Assembly (NCBI GenBank): GCA_016195815.1 | Contig: JACPYX010000004.1 | Span: forward strand, 69,168-133,167 | Reading direction: 5' to 3' | Length of the DNA stretch: 64,000 nt | Source: Chloroflexota bacterium | Lineage (GTDB): Bacteria > Chloroflexota > Anaerolineae > Anaerolineales > Villigracilaceae | Shown here: positions 47,112 through 54,895 of the stretch, one piece after another | How positions within the stretch are numbered: the stretch's first letter is position 1 | Layout: every line of letters begins with the position of its first letter | Notes under the pieces: generated by a model | The model's input: only the letters and a program-made list of their open reading frames with translations | What the model was told of the DNA's origin: nothing | Databases searched by the model: none | Translations under genes and position numbers: made by a program

Positions 47112-47193
47112 GTCATTGCGAGGGCGAGCCCGAAGCAATCTCTCAAATTGCAGTAGGGATTGCTTCGCCGCAAAAGCGGCGGCTCGCAATGAC
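47112..47193. repeat. Nested-palindrome repeat element, copy A (GTCATTGCGAG...CGAAGCAATC...GATTGCTTCG...CTCGCAATGAC)
   Basis: Outer 11-bp arms at 47112-47122 and 47183-47193. Inner 10-bp arms at 47131-47140 and 47158-47167. Related copies lie at 49575 and 54790. Confidence 0.7.
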
Positions 47194-47524: not shown

Positions 47525-48160
47525 ATGGACTTTCTAAAAAATCTTGTTGACATCTTTTTGCGCCTGGACAAATATCTGGCCGATATCATCGTCCAATATG
47601 GGGCTTGGACTTACGGCATATTGTTCCTTGTGATCTTCATGGAAACAGGCTTTGTGGTGACTCCCTTCCTGCCGGGCGATTCCCTGCTCTTTGCGGCTGG
47701 AACATTCGCCGCGCTCGGCTCACTTAATATCTGGCTATTGCTGGGTTTGTTGATGATTGCGGCAGTTGGCGGTGATACGGTCAATTATTGGATTGGTCAC
47801 TATCTTGGCGATCGCGCTTACAACGTCAAATGGATCAAGCGTGAATATCTTGATCGTACCCATGCCTTCTTTGAGAAGCACGGCGGCAAAACGATTTTCC
47901 TGGCACGTTTCGTCCCAATCGTCCGCACCTTTGCCCCTTTCGTCGCCGGCATGGGACGCATGTCGTATGGCTATTTCTTTTCCTATAATGTATTTGGCGG
48001 CATTACCTGGGTTGCGCTCTTTACATTGGCCGGATATTTCTTCGGCAACATTCCTTTCATCAAAAACAACTTTGAATTTGTCATCATCGCCATTATTTTG
48101 ATTTCAATCCTCCCCATGGTTTGGGAAGCGATCAAGGCGCGGCGCGAAAAGACAAAATAA
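47525..48160 (+). CDS. DedA family membrane protein
   Basis: 211 aa. Family motifs PFLPGDSLLFAAG and FLARFVPIVRTF. Confidence 0.85.
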   Translation: MDFLKNLVDIFLRLDKYLADIIVQYGAWTYGILFLVIFMETGFVVTPFLPGDSLLFAAGTFAALGSLNIWLLLGLLMIAAVGGDTVNYWIGHYLGDRAYNVKWIKREYLDRTHAFFEKHGGKTIFLARFVPIVRTFAPFVAGMGRMSYGYFFSYNVFGGITWVALFTLAGYFFGNIPFIKNNFEFVIIAIILISILPMVWEAIKARREKTK

Positions 48161-48196
48161 AACAAACAGGACGCCGTACGGCGTCCTGTTTGTTTT
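48159..48196. terminator. Bidirectional intrinsic terminator between DedA gene and asnS
   Basis: Perfect 17-bp stem AAAACAAACAGGACGCC / GGCGTCCTGTTTGTTTT with loop GTAC. The A/T runs serve both strands. Confidence 0.8.
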
Positions 48197-48213
48197 ACAG
48201 AAGCAGGAGTAGG

Positions 48214-49557
48214 TCACGGATAAACCCGTTTGATCGTCCTCGGGAACGCAATCGCCTCGCGCACATGCTCGATGCCGCACATCCATGCGGTAACGCGTTC
48301 CGTGCCCATGCCGAATCCGCTGTGGGGGACAGAGCCATACTTGCGGAGTTCCAGATACCATTTGAATGCTTCTTCCGGTAATTTCTGCTCGCGGATGCGC
48401 TTCAACAAAAGATCGTGGTCGCTGATGCGCTCGGAGCCGCCGCAGATTTCTCCGTAGCCTTCCGGCGCGAGCAAATCCACCGACTTGCAGACCTCAGGCC
48501 GACCCGGCCAGGGTTCCATGTAAAAGGCTTTGACCGCGGTTGGATACCCGTATACAAAAACGGGTTTATCGAATTGCTGCGTGATGGCCGTCTCGTGTGG
48601 TGCGCCGAAGTCAATGCCCCAATCGAATTTGAGAAGTTCCTTCTTTTCGGGGTCGCTTTCTTTTTTGTACATTTCCTGTAACATCTTCGCCGCATCGTCA
48701 TACGAAATGCGCGGGAAGGGCGCTTTGATGTTTTCCAGTTTCGTCAGGTCACGCCCTAATGAAACCAGTTCCGGCTTCCGGTCCCGCAAGACGCGCTGGA
48801 CGATGTGTGTGATCATCTGCTCTTCGACTTCCATCAACCCATCCAGATCGGTGAAAGCCATTTCCGGTTCGAGCATCCAGAACTCGGTCAGGTGCCGGCG
48901 CGTCTTGGATTTTTCGGCGCGGAAAGTTGGGCCGAAGCAATACACTTTTCCGAACGAAAAAATATTTGCCTCGTTGTAAAGCTGGCCGGTTTGTGCAAGA
49001 TAGGCCTTGCCTTCATCGAAATATTCCGTTTCGAAAAGTGTGGTCGTGCCTTCGGCGGCGGCGGGAGTCAGGATGGGCGTGTCCATGGCGATGAAGCCGT
49101 TGTTGTCGAGCCATTCCCGCGTGGCGGCCATGACTGTGGCACGAATGCGCAAGATGGCCCACTGACTTTGCATTCGCAACCACAAGTGACGATTGTCGAG
49201 CGCGAAATCCACGCCGTGGTCTTTGAGCGCCATCGGATAATCCGCATCGGCAGATTGAACGACTTTCAAATCCTTGATGCCGACTTCAAAACCGCCAGGG
49301 ATGCCGGGCGCGCGTTTATCCTCGCGCACCGCGCCCGTGATGATGACCGACGACTCTTGCGGCAGACGCATGATCTGATCAAATAGTTTTTCGTCGAGAT
49401 CGCCTTTGAAGGCCACGCATTGAGCAAATCCGCTTCCATCGCGCACGAGCAAAAAGACCAGTTTGCCTTTGTCGGTGCGGTTATAAACCCAGCCTTGAAT
49501 GATAACTTCTTCGCCGGCATGTTTTGATAATTCCGTAACCCGTACGATTTCTGCCAT
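48214..49557 (-). CDS. asnS: Asparagine--tRNA ligase
   Basis: Class IIb synthetase. OB-fold N-terminus (GWVYNRTDKGKLVFLLVRDGSG) and YGSVPHSGFGMGTERV. The start is chosen at 49557 (GGAG 7 nt upstream). The ORF also allows an ATG at 49569. Confidence 0.85.
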   Translation of the reverse strand: MAEIVRVTELSKHAGEEVIIQGWVYNRTDKGKLVFLLVRDGSGFAQCVAFKGDLDEKLFDQIMRLPQESSVIITGAVREDKRAPGIPGGFEVGIKDLKVVQSADADYPMALKDHGVDFALDNRHLWLRMQSQWAILRIRATVMAATREWLDNNGFIAMDTPILTPAAAEGTTTLFETEYFDEGKAYLAQTGQLYNEANIFSFGKVYCFGPTFRAEKSKTRRHLTEFWMLEPEMAFTDLDGLMEVEEQMITHIVQRVLRDRKPELVSLGRDLTKLENIKAPFPRISYDDAAKMLQEMYKKESDPEKKELLKFDWGIDFGAPHETAITQQFDKPVFVYGYPTAVKAFYMEPWPGRPEVCKSVDLLAPEGYGEICGGSERISDHDLLLKRIREQKLPEEAFKWYLELRKYGSVPHSGFGMGTERVTAWMCGIEHVREAIAFPRTIKRVYP

Positions 49558-49574
49558 AAGATTCTCCATTCACC

Positions 49575-49655
49575 GTATTGTGAGCCCGAAGGACGAAGCA
49601 ATCTCCTCATAAGCGTGGGGATTGCTTCGTCGGCCTGTGGCCTCCTCGCAATGAC
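49575..49655. repeat. Nested-palindrome repeat element, copy B, between aspS and asnS
   Basis: Degenerate left arm GTATTGTGAG (49575-49584). Inner ACGAAGCAATC / GATTGCTTCGT. Right arm CTCGCAATGAC (49645-49655). It fills the aspS-asnS spacer. Confidence 0.65.
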
Positions 49656-49656
49656 A

Positions 49657-51423
49657 TTATTCGCTTATTTTAATATGCAATTCCTTCAACTGTTTCTGCT
49701 CAACCGGTGACGGCGCATCGGCCATCACATCGCGCGCGTTTTGATTCTTCGGGAAGGCGATCACTTCGCGAATGTTTGGTTCGTCGGCCAGCAGCATCAC
49801 AAGGCGGTCAATTCCAGGAGCCATGCCGCCATGCGGCGGCGCGCCATATTCGAAGGCTTCCAGCATGTGGCCAAACTTCGCCTGAATGTCTTCATCCTTG
49901 ATTCCAAGCAGTTGGAACATCTTGAGTTGAATATCGCGGCGATGGATACGAATGGAACCCGAAGCCATCTCGTAACCGTTGCACACCATGTCATATGCAT
50001 CCGACAAAACTTCGCCGGGATTCGTGTCGAACTTTGGCAGGTCTTCAATCTTCGGCATGGTGAACGGATGATGTTCCGATTCCCATTTTTGTTCATCCTC
50101 ATTCCACGCGAAGAACGGGAAATCCACGACCCAGGCAAAAGCCATCAAATCTTTGTCGGCCAGGTTGAGTTTATCGCGTAGAATCAAACGTAGTGCGCCG
50201 AGAACTTTATTGACCACTGCACGTTTATCGGCGGCAATCAGGATCAGATCGCCTTCCTTCGCTCCCGTTATTTTTTTGACTTGCTCCGCTTCTTCAGGTT
50301 TGACGAATTTCGCGGCGGTTCCTTTCAGGCCCTCGGCGGTTACCGCTAAAGTGGCCAGTCCCTTCGCCCCAAATGTTTTCGCAGACTCGGTCAACGCGTC
50401 CACTTCCTTGCGGGACATGTCCGCGCTATCGGGGGTGACGATGCACTTGATCACGCCCCCCGCTTCAAGGGCAGATTGAAAGACGCGGAAATCGGTCGCT
50501 TTGAAAATATCGGTCAAGTCTAGAAGCTCCATCCCGAAGCGCAAGTCCGGTTTGTCTGATCCATATTTTTCGACGGCTTCTTTATAGGAAAGTTTCGGCC
50601 ACGGCGTGGATAATAATTTTTTGTGCGGCGCGACCGCGGGAATCATTTCGGTGTACAGCCCCTCGACCATTTCGAGTACATCATCGCGATGCACGAAGGA
50701 CATCTCAAGATCAAGTTGAGTGAATTCGGGCTGGCGGTCGCCGCGCAAATCTTCGTCGCGGAAACAACGCGCGATCTGAAAGTAGCGGTCCATGCCTGCC
50801 ACCATCAGCAACTGTTTGAGTTGTTGTGGTGATTGCGGCAGCGCGTAAAACTGTCCGGCGTGAATGCGGGAGGGGACGAGGTAATCGCGCGCGCCTTCGG
50901 GTGTGGCCTTAAAAAGGATGGGCGTTTCGACTTCGATGAAGTTCCGCTGGTCGAGATAATCGCGCATGAACTTGATGACGCGGTGCCGCAAAACCATGTT
51001 GCGATTCATTTTCTCGCGGCGCAGGTCGAGATAGCGATATTTCAGGCGCGTGTTCTCGTCCGGCAGGTCGGTATCGTCGCTGACCATCATCGGCAGGGTT
51101 TTGGCGGGATTGAGCACTTCGATGGATTGTGCGATGACTTCGATCTCGCCCGTTTCCATTTTCGGATTTGCCATGCCGTCCGGCCGCTTTTGAACAACAC
51201 CCGTTATTTGCAAAACCCATTCGAAACGGACATTTGCCACGCTGTCGAGAGTTGCCTTGGACAGATTAGGGTTGATGGTAACTTGCACGATGCCATAACG
51301 GTCGCGCAGATCAAAGAAGATCACCCCGCCGTGGTCGCGCCGACGATGCACCCAGCCCGCCAGTGTGACGGTCTGTCCCACATGGGATGTTTGCAATTCG
51401 CCGCAAGAATGAGTTTTATACAT
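49657..51423 (-). CDS. aspS: Aspartate--tRNA ligase (bacterial type)
   Basis: 588 aa from the ATG at 51423 (GGAGG SD 6 nt upstream). [10 protein letters not shown]... [17 protein letters not shown], class II motifs, and the bacterial insertion domain. The 90-codon upstream extension of the ORF is rejected. Confidence 0.95.
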
Positions 51424-51529
51424 AATGCGCCTCCAGAATTCAAATTCAAACCGCGCGAAGGCCGCAAGGAAGAAAGATGAAAGAAGAAAAATCTCAGTGT
51501 CCTTAGCGTGCTTGGCGGTAATCTTAGAC

Positions 51530-51564
51530 AAAATAAATCGCCCTCCGCGTCTGCGTTGGGCGAT
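51530..51564 (-). terminator. Intrinsic terminator in the aspS leader (attenuator)
   Basis: Minus-strand RNA is AUCGCCC-(14 nt loop)-GGGCGAU followed by UUAUUUU. The 5' arm overlaps a perfect 10-bp alternative pairing partner. Confidence 0.6.
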
Positions 51565-51586
51565 TGGTTTGATCACCTGATTTCGA

Positions 51587-51673
51587 TCAACCTGCAACGT
51601 TTCGCCCAACGTCCGCTTTGCGGTCGTCATTATCATTATTATTGTTGTTAGCGAAGAGTTTGTTGGGCTGCAT
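51587..51673 (-). CDS. Putative Asn/Asp-rich leader peptide (28 codons) of the aspS-asnS operon
   Basis: Reads [28 protein letters not shown]. Codons 9-17 are AAC AAC AAT AAT AAT GAT AAT GAC GAC. The ATG lies 8 nt downstream of a TGcTATAAT box, so the geometry is leaderless. Confidence 0.5.
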
Positions 51674-51681
51674 GTGACGAC

Positions 51682-51690
51682 ATTATAGCA
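51682..51690 (-). promoter_or_regulatory. Extended -10 promoter element (TGcTATAAT) for the aspS leader
   Basis: The minus strand reads TGCTATAAT. The -35 region is weak, as is usual for extended -10 promoters. Confidence 0.4.
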
Positions 51691-51837
51691 CAAGTGATTT
51701 GGGGCCGACGTTTTGAAAACCGCTCAACCGTCAGACACATGACTTTCTTGAAATCCATGGCGGACTCTATCCATTATCATTTTTTCAGACAAGATTTTCG
51801 ATGTTCAAAACTCATGGAGGTTCGATAAACTCTCCTC

Positions 51838-51867
51838 TTGACAATTATAGAACAATTGTTCTATAAT
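51838..51867 (+). promoter_or_regulatory. Consensus sigma-70 promoter overlapped by a 24-bp perfect palindrome containing a Gram-positive-type LexA box (GAAC-N4-GTTC)
   Basis: TTGACA (51838-51843), 18-nt spacer, TATAAT (51862-51867). ATTATAGAACAA|TTGTTCTATAAT (51844-51867) is perfectly self-complementary, with core AGAACAATTGTTCT. Confidence 0.6.
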
Positions 51868-51898
51868 CTGTTTACTTGTGACCTCAAAGGAGGCAGTA

Positions 51899-52672
51899 AT
51901 GAACACTTATCGTCCAACGCGTACATTAGGGGATGGCTTGGCAAAACTCTGGCGTGATCTAACTCACGGGCGCGCTCTCAATCGCGGCGCGGCCTGGGGA
52001 CTGATGATCGTCGGCGCTTTGCTCGCTTTCGAAGTTTTCAACTTTAGCACCACACAGTTTGCCCTGGCAGATGTGCTTGGCAATCTGGCTTTCGCCGGTT
52101 TTCGCTGGGCCACCATTCTCGCTATTGCATTCTGTGGCATTGACTTTGCCGGTATTGCCCGCATCTTTACTCCGCAACAAGGACGCGACGAACCCGCTGA
52201 AGTCTGGTATCTGTTCGGTGCGTGGCTGCTGGCGGCCGGCTTTAACGCCATACTGACCTGGTGGGGCGTATCCGTTGCAATTGTCAACAACACCAGCGCT
52301 GCCTCGGGCGCAGTTCTCAGCGTCGCCACGATGACCAAAGTCGTGCCGATCTTTGTGGCTGTCATGGTCTGGCTGATTCGCATTTTGATCATTGGCACGT
52401 TTTCGCTTTCCGGCGATAACCTTTTCTCCACGGCTGAAGTCCGCGCCAGGCAAGGCCAGCGGCCAGTGATGCAGCCGCCGCGGCCCGCCGCATCTTCGCA
52501 GCCGATCTTGCGGCCAGCCTCATCCCTGCCGCGGCCGATTCAGGCCCAGCCATATCGTCCCGCGCCGAAACCGGCGCCGCCAACCCAATATAATCGCCCT
52601 GAACCCACCTATCACAATATGTCTTTCGATGCACCTTCCACGCCTTATGATGCCGGAGAACCGCGCAACTAA
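51899..52672 (+). CDS. Membrane protein with ~4-5 TM helices and Pro/Gln/Ala-rich C-terminal tail, unknown function
   Basis: GGAGG SD 6 nt before the ATG at 51899. 257 aa. The tail reads ...QPPRPAASSQPILRPASSLPRPIQAQPYRPAPKPAPPTQYNRPEP. Confidence 0.65.
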   Translation: MNTYRPTRTLGDGLAKLWRDLTHGRALNRGAAWGLMIVGALLAFEVFNFSTTQFALADVLGNLAFAGFRWATILAIAFCGIDFAGIARIFTPQQGRDEPAEVWYLFGAWLLAAGFNAILTWWGVSVAIVNNTSAASGAVLSVATMTKVVPIFVAVMVWLIRILIIGTFSLSGDNLFSTAEVRARQGQRPVMQPPRPAASSQPILRPASSLPRPIQAQPYRPAPKPAPPTQYNRPEPTYHNMSFDAPSTPYDAGEPRN

Positions 52673-54789: not shown

Positions 54790-54895
54790 GTCACTGCGAG
54801 AAGTGTTGGTCATCCACTGCACACACGGCAAGCGGATACGAAGCAGTCTCTTTTTTTACGATGGATCGCTTCGCCTGGAAACGGCTCGCAATGAC
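54790..54895. repeat. Nested-palindrome repeat element, copy C (longer, more diverged), between RR and HK genes
   Basis: Left arm GTCACTGCGAG (54790-54800). Inner CGAAGCAGTCTC ... GATCGCTTCG. Right arm CTCGCAATGAC (54885-54895). Confidence 0.6.

Follow-up and report, generated by a model that had tools for sequence, protein, structure and literature searches.

A candidate leader-peptide attenuator with asparagine and aspartate codons upstream of aspS in Anaerolineales

The 64,000-nucleotide stretch of the Chloroflexota contig JACPYX010000004.1 analyzed here (positions 69,168 to 133,167; referred to below as the window, with positions counted from its first nucleotide) carries two adjacent genes for aminoacyl-tRNA synthetases on its minus strand. 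These are aspS (49657 to 51423), encoding an aspartate--tRNA ligase of 588 amino acids (NCBIfam NF001750, 866 bits), and asnS (48214 to 49569), encoding an asparagine--tRNA ligase of 451 amino acids (NF003037, 528 bits). Upstream of aspS lies a leader that contains a short open reading frame (ORF) with an uninterrupted run of Asn and Asp codons, together with RNA segments that can pair in alternative ways. An earlier examination of the letters alone, called here the sequence-only reading, had proposed that this leader controls both genes by attenuation of the trp/his type. The elements that it had named (the -10 box, the ORF, the codon run, segments 2 to 4, the TTATTTT tract, the stop codon, and the aspS ATG) were all found on the minus strand at the positions it gave, and its assignments of aspS and asnS agree with the family matches above.

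All features of the leader are on the minus strand. Its promoter is an extended -10 element, TGTGCTATAAT (51682 to 51692; core box TGCTATAAT, 51690 to 51682), without a conserved -35 element, and the stretch GTCGTCAC separates it from the leader ATG. The leader ORF (51587 to 51673, with the ATG at 51673 to 51671) has 28 codons and a stop. It begins with ATG CAG CCC AAC AAA CTC TTC GCT, continues with the regulatory run at codons 9 to 17 (51623 to 51649; AAC AAC AAT AAT AAT GAT AAT GAC GAC, translated NNNNNDNDD), and ends with CGC AAA GCG GAC GTT GGG CGA AAC GTT GCA GGT TGA. As the sequence-only reading had pointed out, these nine codons specify exactly the amino acids of the two synthetases encoded downstream. 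No other stretch of the window, in any of its six frames, has five or more Asn/Asp codons in a row, and the longest run in 200 block-shuffled windows did not exceed 6 codons, compared with the 9 seen.

Four RNA segments make up the alternative pairings. Segment 1, CTTCGCT (51650 to 51656), consists of the Phe-Ala codons ahead of the run and pairs with GGCGAA(G) of segment 2, forming a predicted anti-antiterminator. In the sequence-only reading, segment 1 had been GCCCAAC at 51669 to 51663; that heptamer actually lies at 51668 to 51662 and, outside the window, occurs in a few close relatives only, and it is CTTCGCY (51656 to 51650) that is conserved as the pairing partner of segment 2. Segment 2, CGTTGGGCGA (51602 to 51611), can pair with segment 1 or with segment 3, and segment 3, TCGCCCAACG (51554 to 51563), is common to the antiterminator, formed with segment 2, and the terminator, formed with segment 4 (GGGCGAT, 51537 to 51543, followed by TTATTTT). 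An inner hairpin, GACGaCCGC-AAA-GCGGaCGUU (51608 to 51628; -9.1 kcal/mol), involves the last Asp codons and the 5' edge of segment 2. The stop codon TGA (51587 to 51589) is located 12 nt 3' of segment 2, within a variable hairpin, GGUUGAUC...GAUCAAACC (51566 to 51592; -8.3 kcal/mol in the window), that extends the 2:3 helix. The predicted intrinsic terminator (51530 to 51565) is an 11-pair interrupted GC-rich stem, AAUCGCCCaaCGC-AGAC-GCGgaGGGCGAUU, with the U-tract UUUAUUUU; its core reads AATCGCCCAACGC-AGAC-GCGGAGGGCGATT, and the following TTATTTT extends up to 51530. The aspS ATG (51423) lies 106 nt beyond the end of this terminator and is preceded by the Shine-Dalgarno sequence GGAGG (51430 to 51434), which is part of a GGAGGCRC motif before the aspS ATG in relatives.

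To place the leader in a comparative frame, the aspartyl-tRNA synthetase (AspRS) protein was used to scan one genome per species, which gave 18 close relatives with 71 to 91% identity (loci are cited below by their L numbers). All of them are metagenome-assembled genomes (MAGs) of Anaerolineales, including Candidatus Villigracilis (Chloroflexota). Because these loci were retrieved by the AspRS protein and not by the leader, they are unbiased with respect to it. The leader was present upstream of aspS in 16 of the 17 informative Anaerolineales loci (the copy in L001 is truncated at the contig end) and absent from L013, an Anaerolinea sp.; L015 was left out of the informative set, as its contig has no DNA upstream of aspS. 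As the sequence-only reading had proposed as a check, the upstream regions were compared, and the ORF is kept in all 16 genomes that carry the element, together with its frame, its Asn/Asp run, and the place of its stop. The leader was not found at the more distant aspS loci of Dehalococcoidia, Planctomycetes, spirochaetes, and archaeal-labelled MAGs, and among 80 genome loci no Asn/Asp leader before aspS in other phyla rose above chance.

A DNA search pattern derived from the conserved core retrieved at least 120 metagenome stretches, 5 of which were GC-rich chance matches and the rest true copies; this pattern fixes most of segments 2 to 4. Together with the genome loci, the matches listed make a family of at least 128 leaders (124 distinct), and it is to these listed matches that the family counts below refer. 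Metagenome contigs bearing the element number about 118 among the matches listed. The carriers are uncultured MAGs. The complete arrangement is seen again in more than 120 independent sequences, with AspRS proteins 61 to 91% identical and wholly divergent flanks, and the observation made in the window is far from chance.

Across the family, the short ORF bears the marks of a coding sequence. An in-frame ORF from ATG to stop, 23 to 29 codons long, occurs in all complete members listed, with one exception of 42 codons (L099), and the Phe-Ala codons of segment 1 are in frame with the ATG in 115 of 120. Within the run interval, 794 of 886 codons (90%) are AAT, AAC, GAT, or GAC (439, 164, 112, and 79, respectively), so that both synonymous codons are in use, and the length of the run, usually 7 to 10 Asn/Asp codons, differs in whole codons only. 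The distance between segments 1 and 2 is 0 mod 3 in 109 copies, which have the stop at +18 from GGGC and the C-terminal frame VGRSxAG. Nine loci, including L010, L088, L098, L104, L117, L137, L164, and L165, are shifted by +1 through a 1-nt insertion in the loop of the inner hairpin, and their peptides end in YRWAKPC/HC (RWAKxC) instead of IVGRSFAG. Most of these have acquired a new stop at +14 from GGGC, 4 nt upstream of the usual one. Since the shifted copies regain a nearby stop, the position at which the ribosome stops appears to be under selection, and the sequence of the C-terminal peptide does not. The N-terminal residues also vary across the family. These features suggest that the short ORF is probably read by ribosomes.

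Two further observations concern the peptide. L099 (1067 to 1252) has 20 consecutive Asn codons followed by D-N-D (up to 22 Asn/Asp codons) in its 42-codon ORF and shows that the run can expand, apparently by codon slippage, with the frame intact. In addition, Pro or Pro-Pro codons stand right after the run in most copies (NRPPAVGRS in L083, DDNPPIV in L111, and DDPCIV in L003); the window has DDRKAD instead. Such Pro codons could cause an additional pause, dependent on elongation factor P (EF-P), before segment 2, or they could merely reflect the C-rich inner hairpin.

The start of the ORF is held in a fixed relation to the promoter. The box TGCTATAAT is invariant in 118 to 120 of the 120 distinct family members listed, and the positions upstream of it carry no more than 0.35 bit each; as nothing is conserved there, no -35 element appears to exist. 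In at least 90 distinct copies, the ATG follows the -10 box by 7 to 11 nt, mostly by 9 nt and in the window by 8 nt. Position 7 after the box is an A in 64 of 69 copies of the spacing-9 class and in 27 of 29 copies of the Shine-Dalgarno class described below, and this conserved A, 7 nt past the hexamer, is the predicted transcription start (51675 in the window). The 5' untranslated region (UTR) would accordingly measure 0 to 3 nt, making the transcript leaderless for practical purposes. The sequence-only reading had called for leaderless initiation without a Shine-Dalgarno sequence, which fits the ATG 8 nt past the -10 box; strictly speaking, the window transcript is predicted to retain a 5' UTR of 2 nt. 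At least 32 copies, all in one subclade, place the ATG roughly 20 nt after the -10 box, with TGAGG 5 to 6 nt before it; in this subclade, the start signal is exchanged for a putative Shine-Dalgarno sequence (GAGG) and the ORF is retained.

The discriminator, which separates the predicted +1 from the -10 box (51676 to 51681 in the window), is GC rich throughout the family, with the consensus GCCGCC. GC-rich discriminators mark stringently controlled promoters in Escherichia coli, and by analogy a ppGpp-type control may be layered over the attenuator.

Segments 2 (CGUUGGGCGA), 3 (UCGCCCRACG), and 4 (GGGCGAU) are nearly invariant in an alignment of 119 sequences. Pairing holds in 99.5% of the alignment cells for the 10-bp 2:3 helix and in 98.5% for the 3:4 helix, taken with its inner CGC/GCG extension, which agrees with the antiterminator and terminator assigned by the sequence-only reading. 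The seven pairs of the 1:2 helix (CUUCGCY with GGCGAAG) are formed in 96.1% of the cells of the 118 distinct sequences listed. Unpaired positions, namely the terminator loop and the internal loop (GA/AA/CA/GC/UU), vary freely, and the one segment 3 position left free opposite a U of segment 2 is always a purine, A in 76 sequences and G in 43. In L007, both strands of the 1:2 helix are altered together, TTTTGCCC/GGGCAAAA (UUUUGCCC/GGGCAAAA), giving two compensatory pairs, and in L008 an A-U pair of the terminator stem is replaced by G-C. An 8-nt insertion in L006, L012, L126, L133, and L146 lengthens the terminator stem (CGCUCCC-AAA-GGGAUGCG). The inner hairpin reaches -2 kcal/mol or lower in 95% of the 119 leaders, with a mean of -5.6 kcal/mol compared with -2.7 kcal/mol for shuffled sequences, and it is made from unrelated sequences such as ACGAT/ATCGT, CGGCC/GGCCG, and TCCC/GGGA.

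Two other structures were considered but are not taken as conserved. The stop-codon hairpin, together with a GGUU/AACC extension of the 2:3 helix, is poorly alignable and has a mean z score of -0.87 against shuffles, and a local hairpin within segment 2 that was suggested by RNAalifold (GGCGA/UUGCU) is lost in the Shine-Dalgarno subclade.

Wherever the flanking DNA is long enough to tell, each listed copy stands before a gene for Asp-tRNA or Asn-tRNA formation or for asparagine synthesis, apart from L122 and L169. In 22 copies listed, including that of the window, the leader is followed by aspS-asnS. It is followed by aspS-gatC-gatA(-gatB) in others, of which 14 reach gatA, 9 reach gatB, and 2 reach only gatC, and one more runs on into asnS. 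In a further 4 + 2 copies (L088, L164, L115, L004, L172, and L180), the gene directly after aspS encodes a second aspartate--tRNA(Asn) ligase, of the archaeal type (NF003483, 506 bits), and the 2 continue into gatCA. Asparagine-tRNA in aspS-gatCAB operons is made by way of AspRS and the amidotransferase, and Asn codons in the leader therefore fit these operons as well. Finally, 5 copies listed precede asnA, encoding aspartate--ammonia ligase (TIGR00669, 381 bits). At least three of these belong to a tandem arrangement, leader-asnA-leader-aspS (L095, positions 83 to 1467; L151; and L174), with asnS after aspS in L095 and L151; the contigs of the remaining two (L093 and L160) end within asnA. 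The asnA leaders of L095 and L174 have Asn-only runs of 9 and 7 codons, whereas the aspS leaders on the same contigs mix Asn and Asp. On average, asnA leaders contain 6.8 Asn and 1.0 Asp codons, compared with about 5.5 and 3 elsewhere, for n = 5 related sequences. This is suggestive of a link between the Asn:Asp ratio and the type of operon, in which the asnA leaders alone differ.

As to the two exceptions, L122 (152 to 1330) has a putative transposase-like ORF of 392 amino acids inserted between the attenuator and the expected site of aspS, and L169 is rearranged after the leader.

What is observed here is the anatomy and its conservation, the constraints on coding, the complementary segments, and a strict association of the leader with Asp/Asn-tRNA genes. 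On these grounds, we regard it as highly probable that the leader acts as a transcription attenuator of the ribosome-mediated (leader-peptide) type and responds to how far tRNA-Asn and tRNA-Asp are charged. The conserved ORF, frame, run, stop, and pairings across the family all speak for the trp/his-type logic proposed by the sequence-only reading. As far as the structure of leader-peptide attenuators can be examined in silico, the element has all of it: a short ORF with a credible start, whose translation is predicted, a cluster of cognate codons, a terminator, an antiterminator exclusive of it, and a 1:2 pairing that a stalled ribosome would disrupt.

From this anatomy we infer that the ORF is translated, where transcription starts, that ribosomes stall, that kinetics decide between the 2:3 and 3:4 pairings, and in which direction regulation works, as follows. 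Transcription from the -35-independent extended -10 promoter would start 2 to 3 nt before the AUG, and a ribosome would load at the near-leaderless 5' end or, in one subclade, at the GAGG Shine-Dalgarno sequence. With charged Asn-tRNA and Asp-tRNA plentiful, the ribosome would pass the 7 to 10 Asn/Asp codons, cross segment 2, and stop 12 nt past it. Segment 2 would then be neutralized by the parked ribosome, by the re-formed inner hairpin, which takes its CGU, and, after release of the ribosome, by pairing with segment 1. Segment 3, being free, would pair with segment 4, and the GC-rich hairpin with its U-tract would terminate transcription about 105 nt upstream of aspS. When either charged tRNA is scarce, the ribosome would stall in the run, between segments 1 and 2. 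The last Asn/Asp codon lies 11 or 14 nt from segment 2 in 106 of the 119 leaders, a distance close to the downstream reach of a ribosome, so that segment 2 should stay exposed during a stall; since the run is inside the loop closed by the 1:2 helix, a ribosome anywhere in the run would preclude that helix. Segment 2 would therefore pair with segment 3 once the latter is made (10 bp plus the extension), the terminator could not form, and RNA polymerase would read through into aspS-asnS. Across loci, anything from 27 to 203 nt separates the terminator from aspS, and this spacer is often occupied by an unrelated palindromic repeat, which argues for control of transcription and not for occlusion of the aspS ribosome-binding site.

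Folding calculations bear on the two states of this proposed switch. The mean energies of the antiterminator domain, the terminator, and the 1:2 domain are -21.7, -17.5, and -14.3 kcal/mol, respectively. The free full-length leader adopts the terminator fold in 111 of 119 cases, with the 1:2 helix formed as well in 90 of 119. When the transcript ends before the 3' arm of the terminator and a ribosome in the run masks itself and everything 5' of it, the 2:3 helix forms at 99% of the stall positions, as expected from the claim of the sequence-only reading that a stalled ribosome leaves segment 2 free for segment 3.

Several results weigh against the attenuation model. In the equilibrium fold of the full-length leader, the terminator persists at 81% of the stall positions even with a stalled ribosome in place. 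Thermodynamics alone was therefore dropped as the switch, and the choice between 2:3 and 3:4 must be kinetic; the truncated transcript, which approximates the kinetic situation, does switch. The decision in trp attenuation is likewise kinetic. A ribosome with the stop codon in its A site covers, with a standard footprint, only the last 3 to 4 nt of segment 2, and when pairing around this ribosome is allowed, the 2:3 helix persists in 83 of 119 leaders. Before segment 4 is made and without a ribosome, the optimum is 2:3 in 69 of 119 and 1:2 in 41 of 119. The sequence-only reading had a ribosome at the stop mask segment 2: the stop does lie 12 nt past the segment, but the footprint reaches its end only, and the "masking" needs steric effects and the conserved inner hairpin in addition. 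The 1:2 helix has a mid-helix mismatch (TTTTCC) in L016, L019, L100, and L200. Covariation, finally, is minimal. The compensatory changes that the sequence-only reading had suggested looking for do occur, two in L007 and one in L008, but these three double changes are all there are in otherwise near-invariant segments 1 to 4, and the metagenome copies were preselected on segments 2 to 4. Such a near-absence of covariation is expected, because every base in segments 2 and 3 can pair with two alternative partners, and the first two segments code for protein as well. Support for the predicted helices is from conservation and complementarity, not from covariation statistics, and covariation is uninformative here rather than negative.

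Other explanations of the leader were weighed against this model. Were nothing regulatory present, the ORF would be a chance product of an AT-rich repeat that happens to lie, in a region between divergent genes, beside some common hairpin or terminator; in keeping with this, the 261-nt leader of the window folds only mildly better than shuffled sequences (z = -1.83), and a simple terminator scan of the window left the attenuator hairpin unflagged, although the latter is because its loop exceeds 8 nt. The length of the run relative to shuffled windows and the retention of the element in the family amid fully diverged flanks contradict this explanation, as does a covariance model of the element, which scores the window copy at 118.7 bits and finds no second copy in the window (the sole further match with an E value below 0.01, at 33.9 bits, comes from reading the palindromic terminator on the opposite strand). 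The comparative sequence data refute an origin by chance, and we give it practically no credence. Another explanation is a regulatory RNA that is not translated. In such a switch, resembling a T-box or a protein-mediated attenuator, the AAY/GAY repeats in the 1:2 loop would bind the anticodons of tRNA-Asn and tRNA-Asp, or a protein, and shift the balance between 2:3 and 3:4. The T-box specifier codons for Asn and Asp would be AAC and GAC, both found in the run, and the conservation of segments 2 to 4 in sequence, with almost no covariation, resembles that of ligand- or protein-binding sites. However, a cmscan search of 51300 to 52000 against Rfam 15 at E values up to 10, the check for a known riboswitch that the sequence-only reading had advised, returned no T-box (RF00230), no His, Trp, Thr, Leu, or Phe leader, and no other meaningful match, and neither a Stem I nor a T-box sequence is present. 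Likewise, no T-box or other Rfam element was detected upstream of aspS at six other loci scanned, from Chloroflexota and other phyla. The fixed spacing from the -10 box to the ATG, the exchange of the start signal for a Shine-Dalgarno sequence, the 3-nt periodicity, indels that span whole codons, and a stop whose position is compensated are moreover coding signatures that an untranslated RNA would not need, and we find this explanation very improbable.

It is also conceivable, though unlikely, that the ORF is translated and that its main output is a different one: a terminated RNA of about 145 nt or the peptide acting in trans, or a sensing of general translation speed or of EF-P-dependent pausing at Pro codons. 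Pro or Pro-Pro directly 3' of the run in most copies (DDP, NRPPA, NPPI) would suit a pausing sensor, and the extreme conservation of the segments could mean that an extra constraint acts on them. There is also precedent in rnTrpL and peTrpL of Sinorhizobium, which act in trans. Functions in trans have been documented for small RNAs derived from attenuators and for leader peptides (PMC6614838 and PMC7298713). On the other hand, the frameshifted RWAKxC variants retain the RNA and not the peptide, so the C-terminal part of the peptide seems dispensable; the N-terminal residues and the length of the run are variable; and the Pro codons fall where the C-rich inner hairpin forms. Specificity for amino acids is indicated by the Asn-only runs before asnA and by the fact that the element is linked exclusively to Asp/Asn-tRNA genes, and a function in trans would add to attenuation and not replace it.

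The surroundings of the operon in the window have some features of their own. Downstream of asnS, a perfect 19-bp hairpin with T-runs on both sides (48157 to 48198, minus strand) closes the aspS-asnS operon; asnS and a gene of the DedA family (47525 to 48160) converge on it, and it is probably a bidirectional terminator. Upstream of the leader, a perfect promoter of the form TTGACA-18-TATAAT (51838 to 51867, plus strand) stands ahead of a divergent ORF of 264 amino acids (51878 to 52672, plus strand), which has no match in NCBIfam. A palindromic repeat of about 80 nt with the pattern GTCATTGCGAGG...GACGAAGCAATC...GAGATTGCTTCG...CTCGCAATGAC occurs in several copies in the window (47112 to 47193; 49594 to 49655, in the aspS-asnS spacer; and about 54839 to 54895). 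The same repeat is inserted between the attenuator terminator and aspS in L001, L002, L005 to L007, L009, L010, L012, and L019, and it looks like an element of these Anaerolineales similar to repetitive extragenic palindromes or miniature inverted-repeat transposable elements (REP/MITE).

No leader peptide reading Asn or Asp codons, nor such an attenuator in Chloroflexota, was found in the full-text literature searched or in Rfam 15, and an earlier mention is possible. We consider it reasonably likely that this is the first described ribosome-mediated attenuator responsive to Asn and Asp. It would be a dual-amino-acid and mostly near-leaderless device governing a small regulon for the supply of Asp- and Asn-tRNA in a clade of Anaerolineales (Candidatus Villigracilaceae and relatives), one that covers the direct route (aspS-asnS), indirect transamidation (aspS-gatCAB and aspS-aspS2), and asparagine synthesis (asnA), with the codon content tuned to the target. 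The family would show that classical attenuation has been reinvented in an understudied phylum on a near-leaderless transcript and that signals from two amino acids can be combined in a single leader for two synthetases. It would also show that the indirect pathway to Asn-tRNA, by a nondiscriminating AspRS and GatCAB, can come under the control of Asn codons, and so offer a handle on its regulation. The covariance model of the element is ready for the annotation of MAGs, in which standard gene finders are unlikely to call such short ORFs. As a compact and highly conserved switch, the element would also lend itself to studies of how leaderless translation is coupled to transcription.

Leader-peptide attenuation is textbook knowledge for Trp, His, Phe, Thr, Leu, and Ile/Val. 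In the pheST attenuator of E. coli, which is proteobacterial, ribosomes stall on the Phe-rich leader peptide encoded by pheM, whose translation starts from a Shine-Dalgarno sequence. The leader described here similarly combines a peptide rich in cognate residues with a terminator and antiterminator ahead of a tRNA synthetase operon, but it has no sequence similarity to pheM and involves two amino acids instead of one, serving two synthetases or aspS together with GatCAB. The hisL leader has seven consecutive His codons (Rfam His_leader). With the his and trp leaders, the present one shares a long unbroken codon run (as in hisL), the 1:2, 2:3, and 3:4 logic in which a stall would free segment 2, and a terminator with a U-tract. 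It differs from them in its near-leaderless initiation and in its targets, which are synthetases, amidotransferase genes, and asnA and not a biosynthetic operon alone; its stop codon lies 3' of segment 2, whereas that of trp precedes segment 2.

T-box riboswitches on aspS, asnS, and asnA in Firmicutes read uncharged tRNA directly, without translation. The present leader would resemble them in that genes of the same kinds are antiterminated when tRNA-Asp or tRNA-Asn is uncharged, but it has neither T-box features nor a T-box match in Rfam (for a general survey of T-boxes, see PMC2494555). The closest parallels in initiation are leaderless leader peptides of other phyla, for which attenuation has been either predicted or shown. 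Such peptides precede tRNA synthetase genes in Deinococcus deserti, where 14 are predicted and that of cysS has been shown (PMC4007540), and alaS, leuS, trpS, and thrS in Streptomyces lividans (PMC8079986); in mycobacteria, leaderless poly-Cys short ORFs act as attenuators (bioRxiv 10.1101/834739). The accounts of D. deserti and S. lividans, as far as examined, contain no Asn or Asp leader. Because leaderless leader peptides of synthetase genes have been reported in these phyla, the kind of element is already known, and in all of them, as predicted here, the transcript starts at or beside the AUG of a short ORF rich in cognate codons before a synthetase or biosynthesis gene. The phyla and the amino acids differ, however, and the peptides described in those accounts mostly have 1 to 6 cognate codons, often without a clear terminator, whereas the leaders of the Anaerolineales combine 7 to 10 such codons with a canonical terminator.

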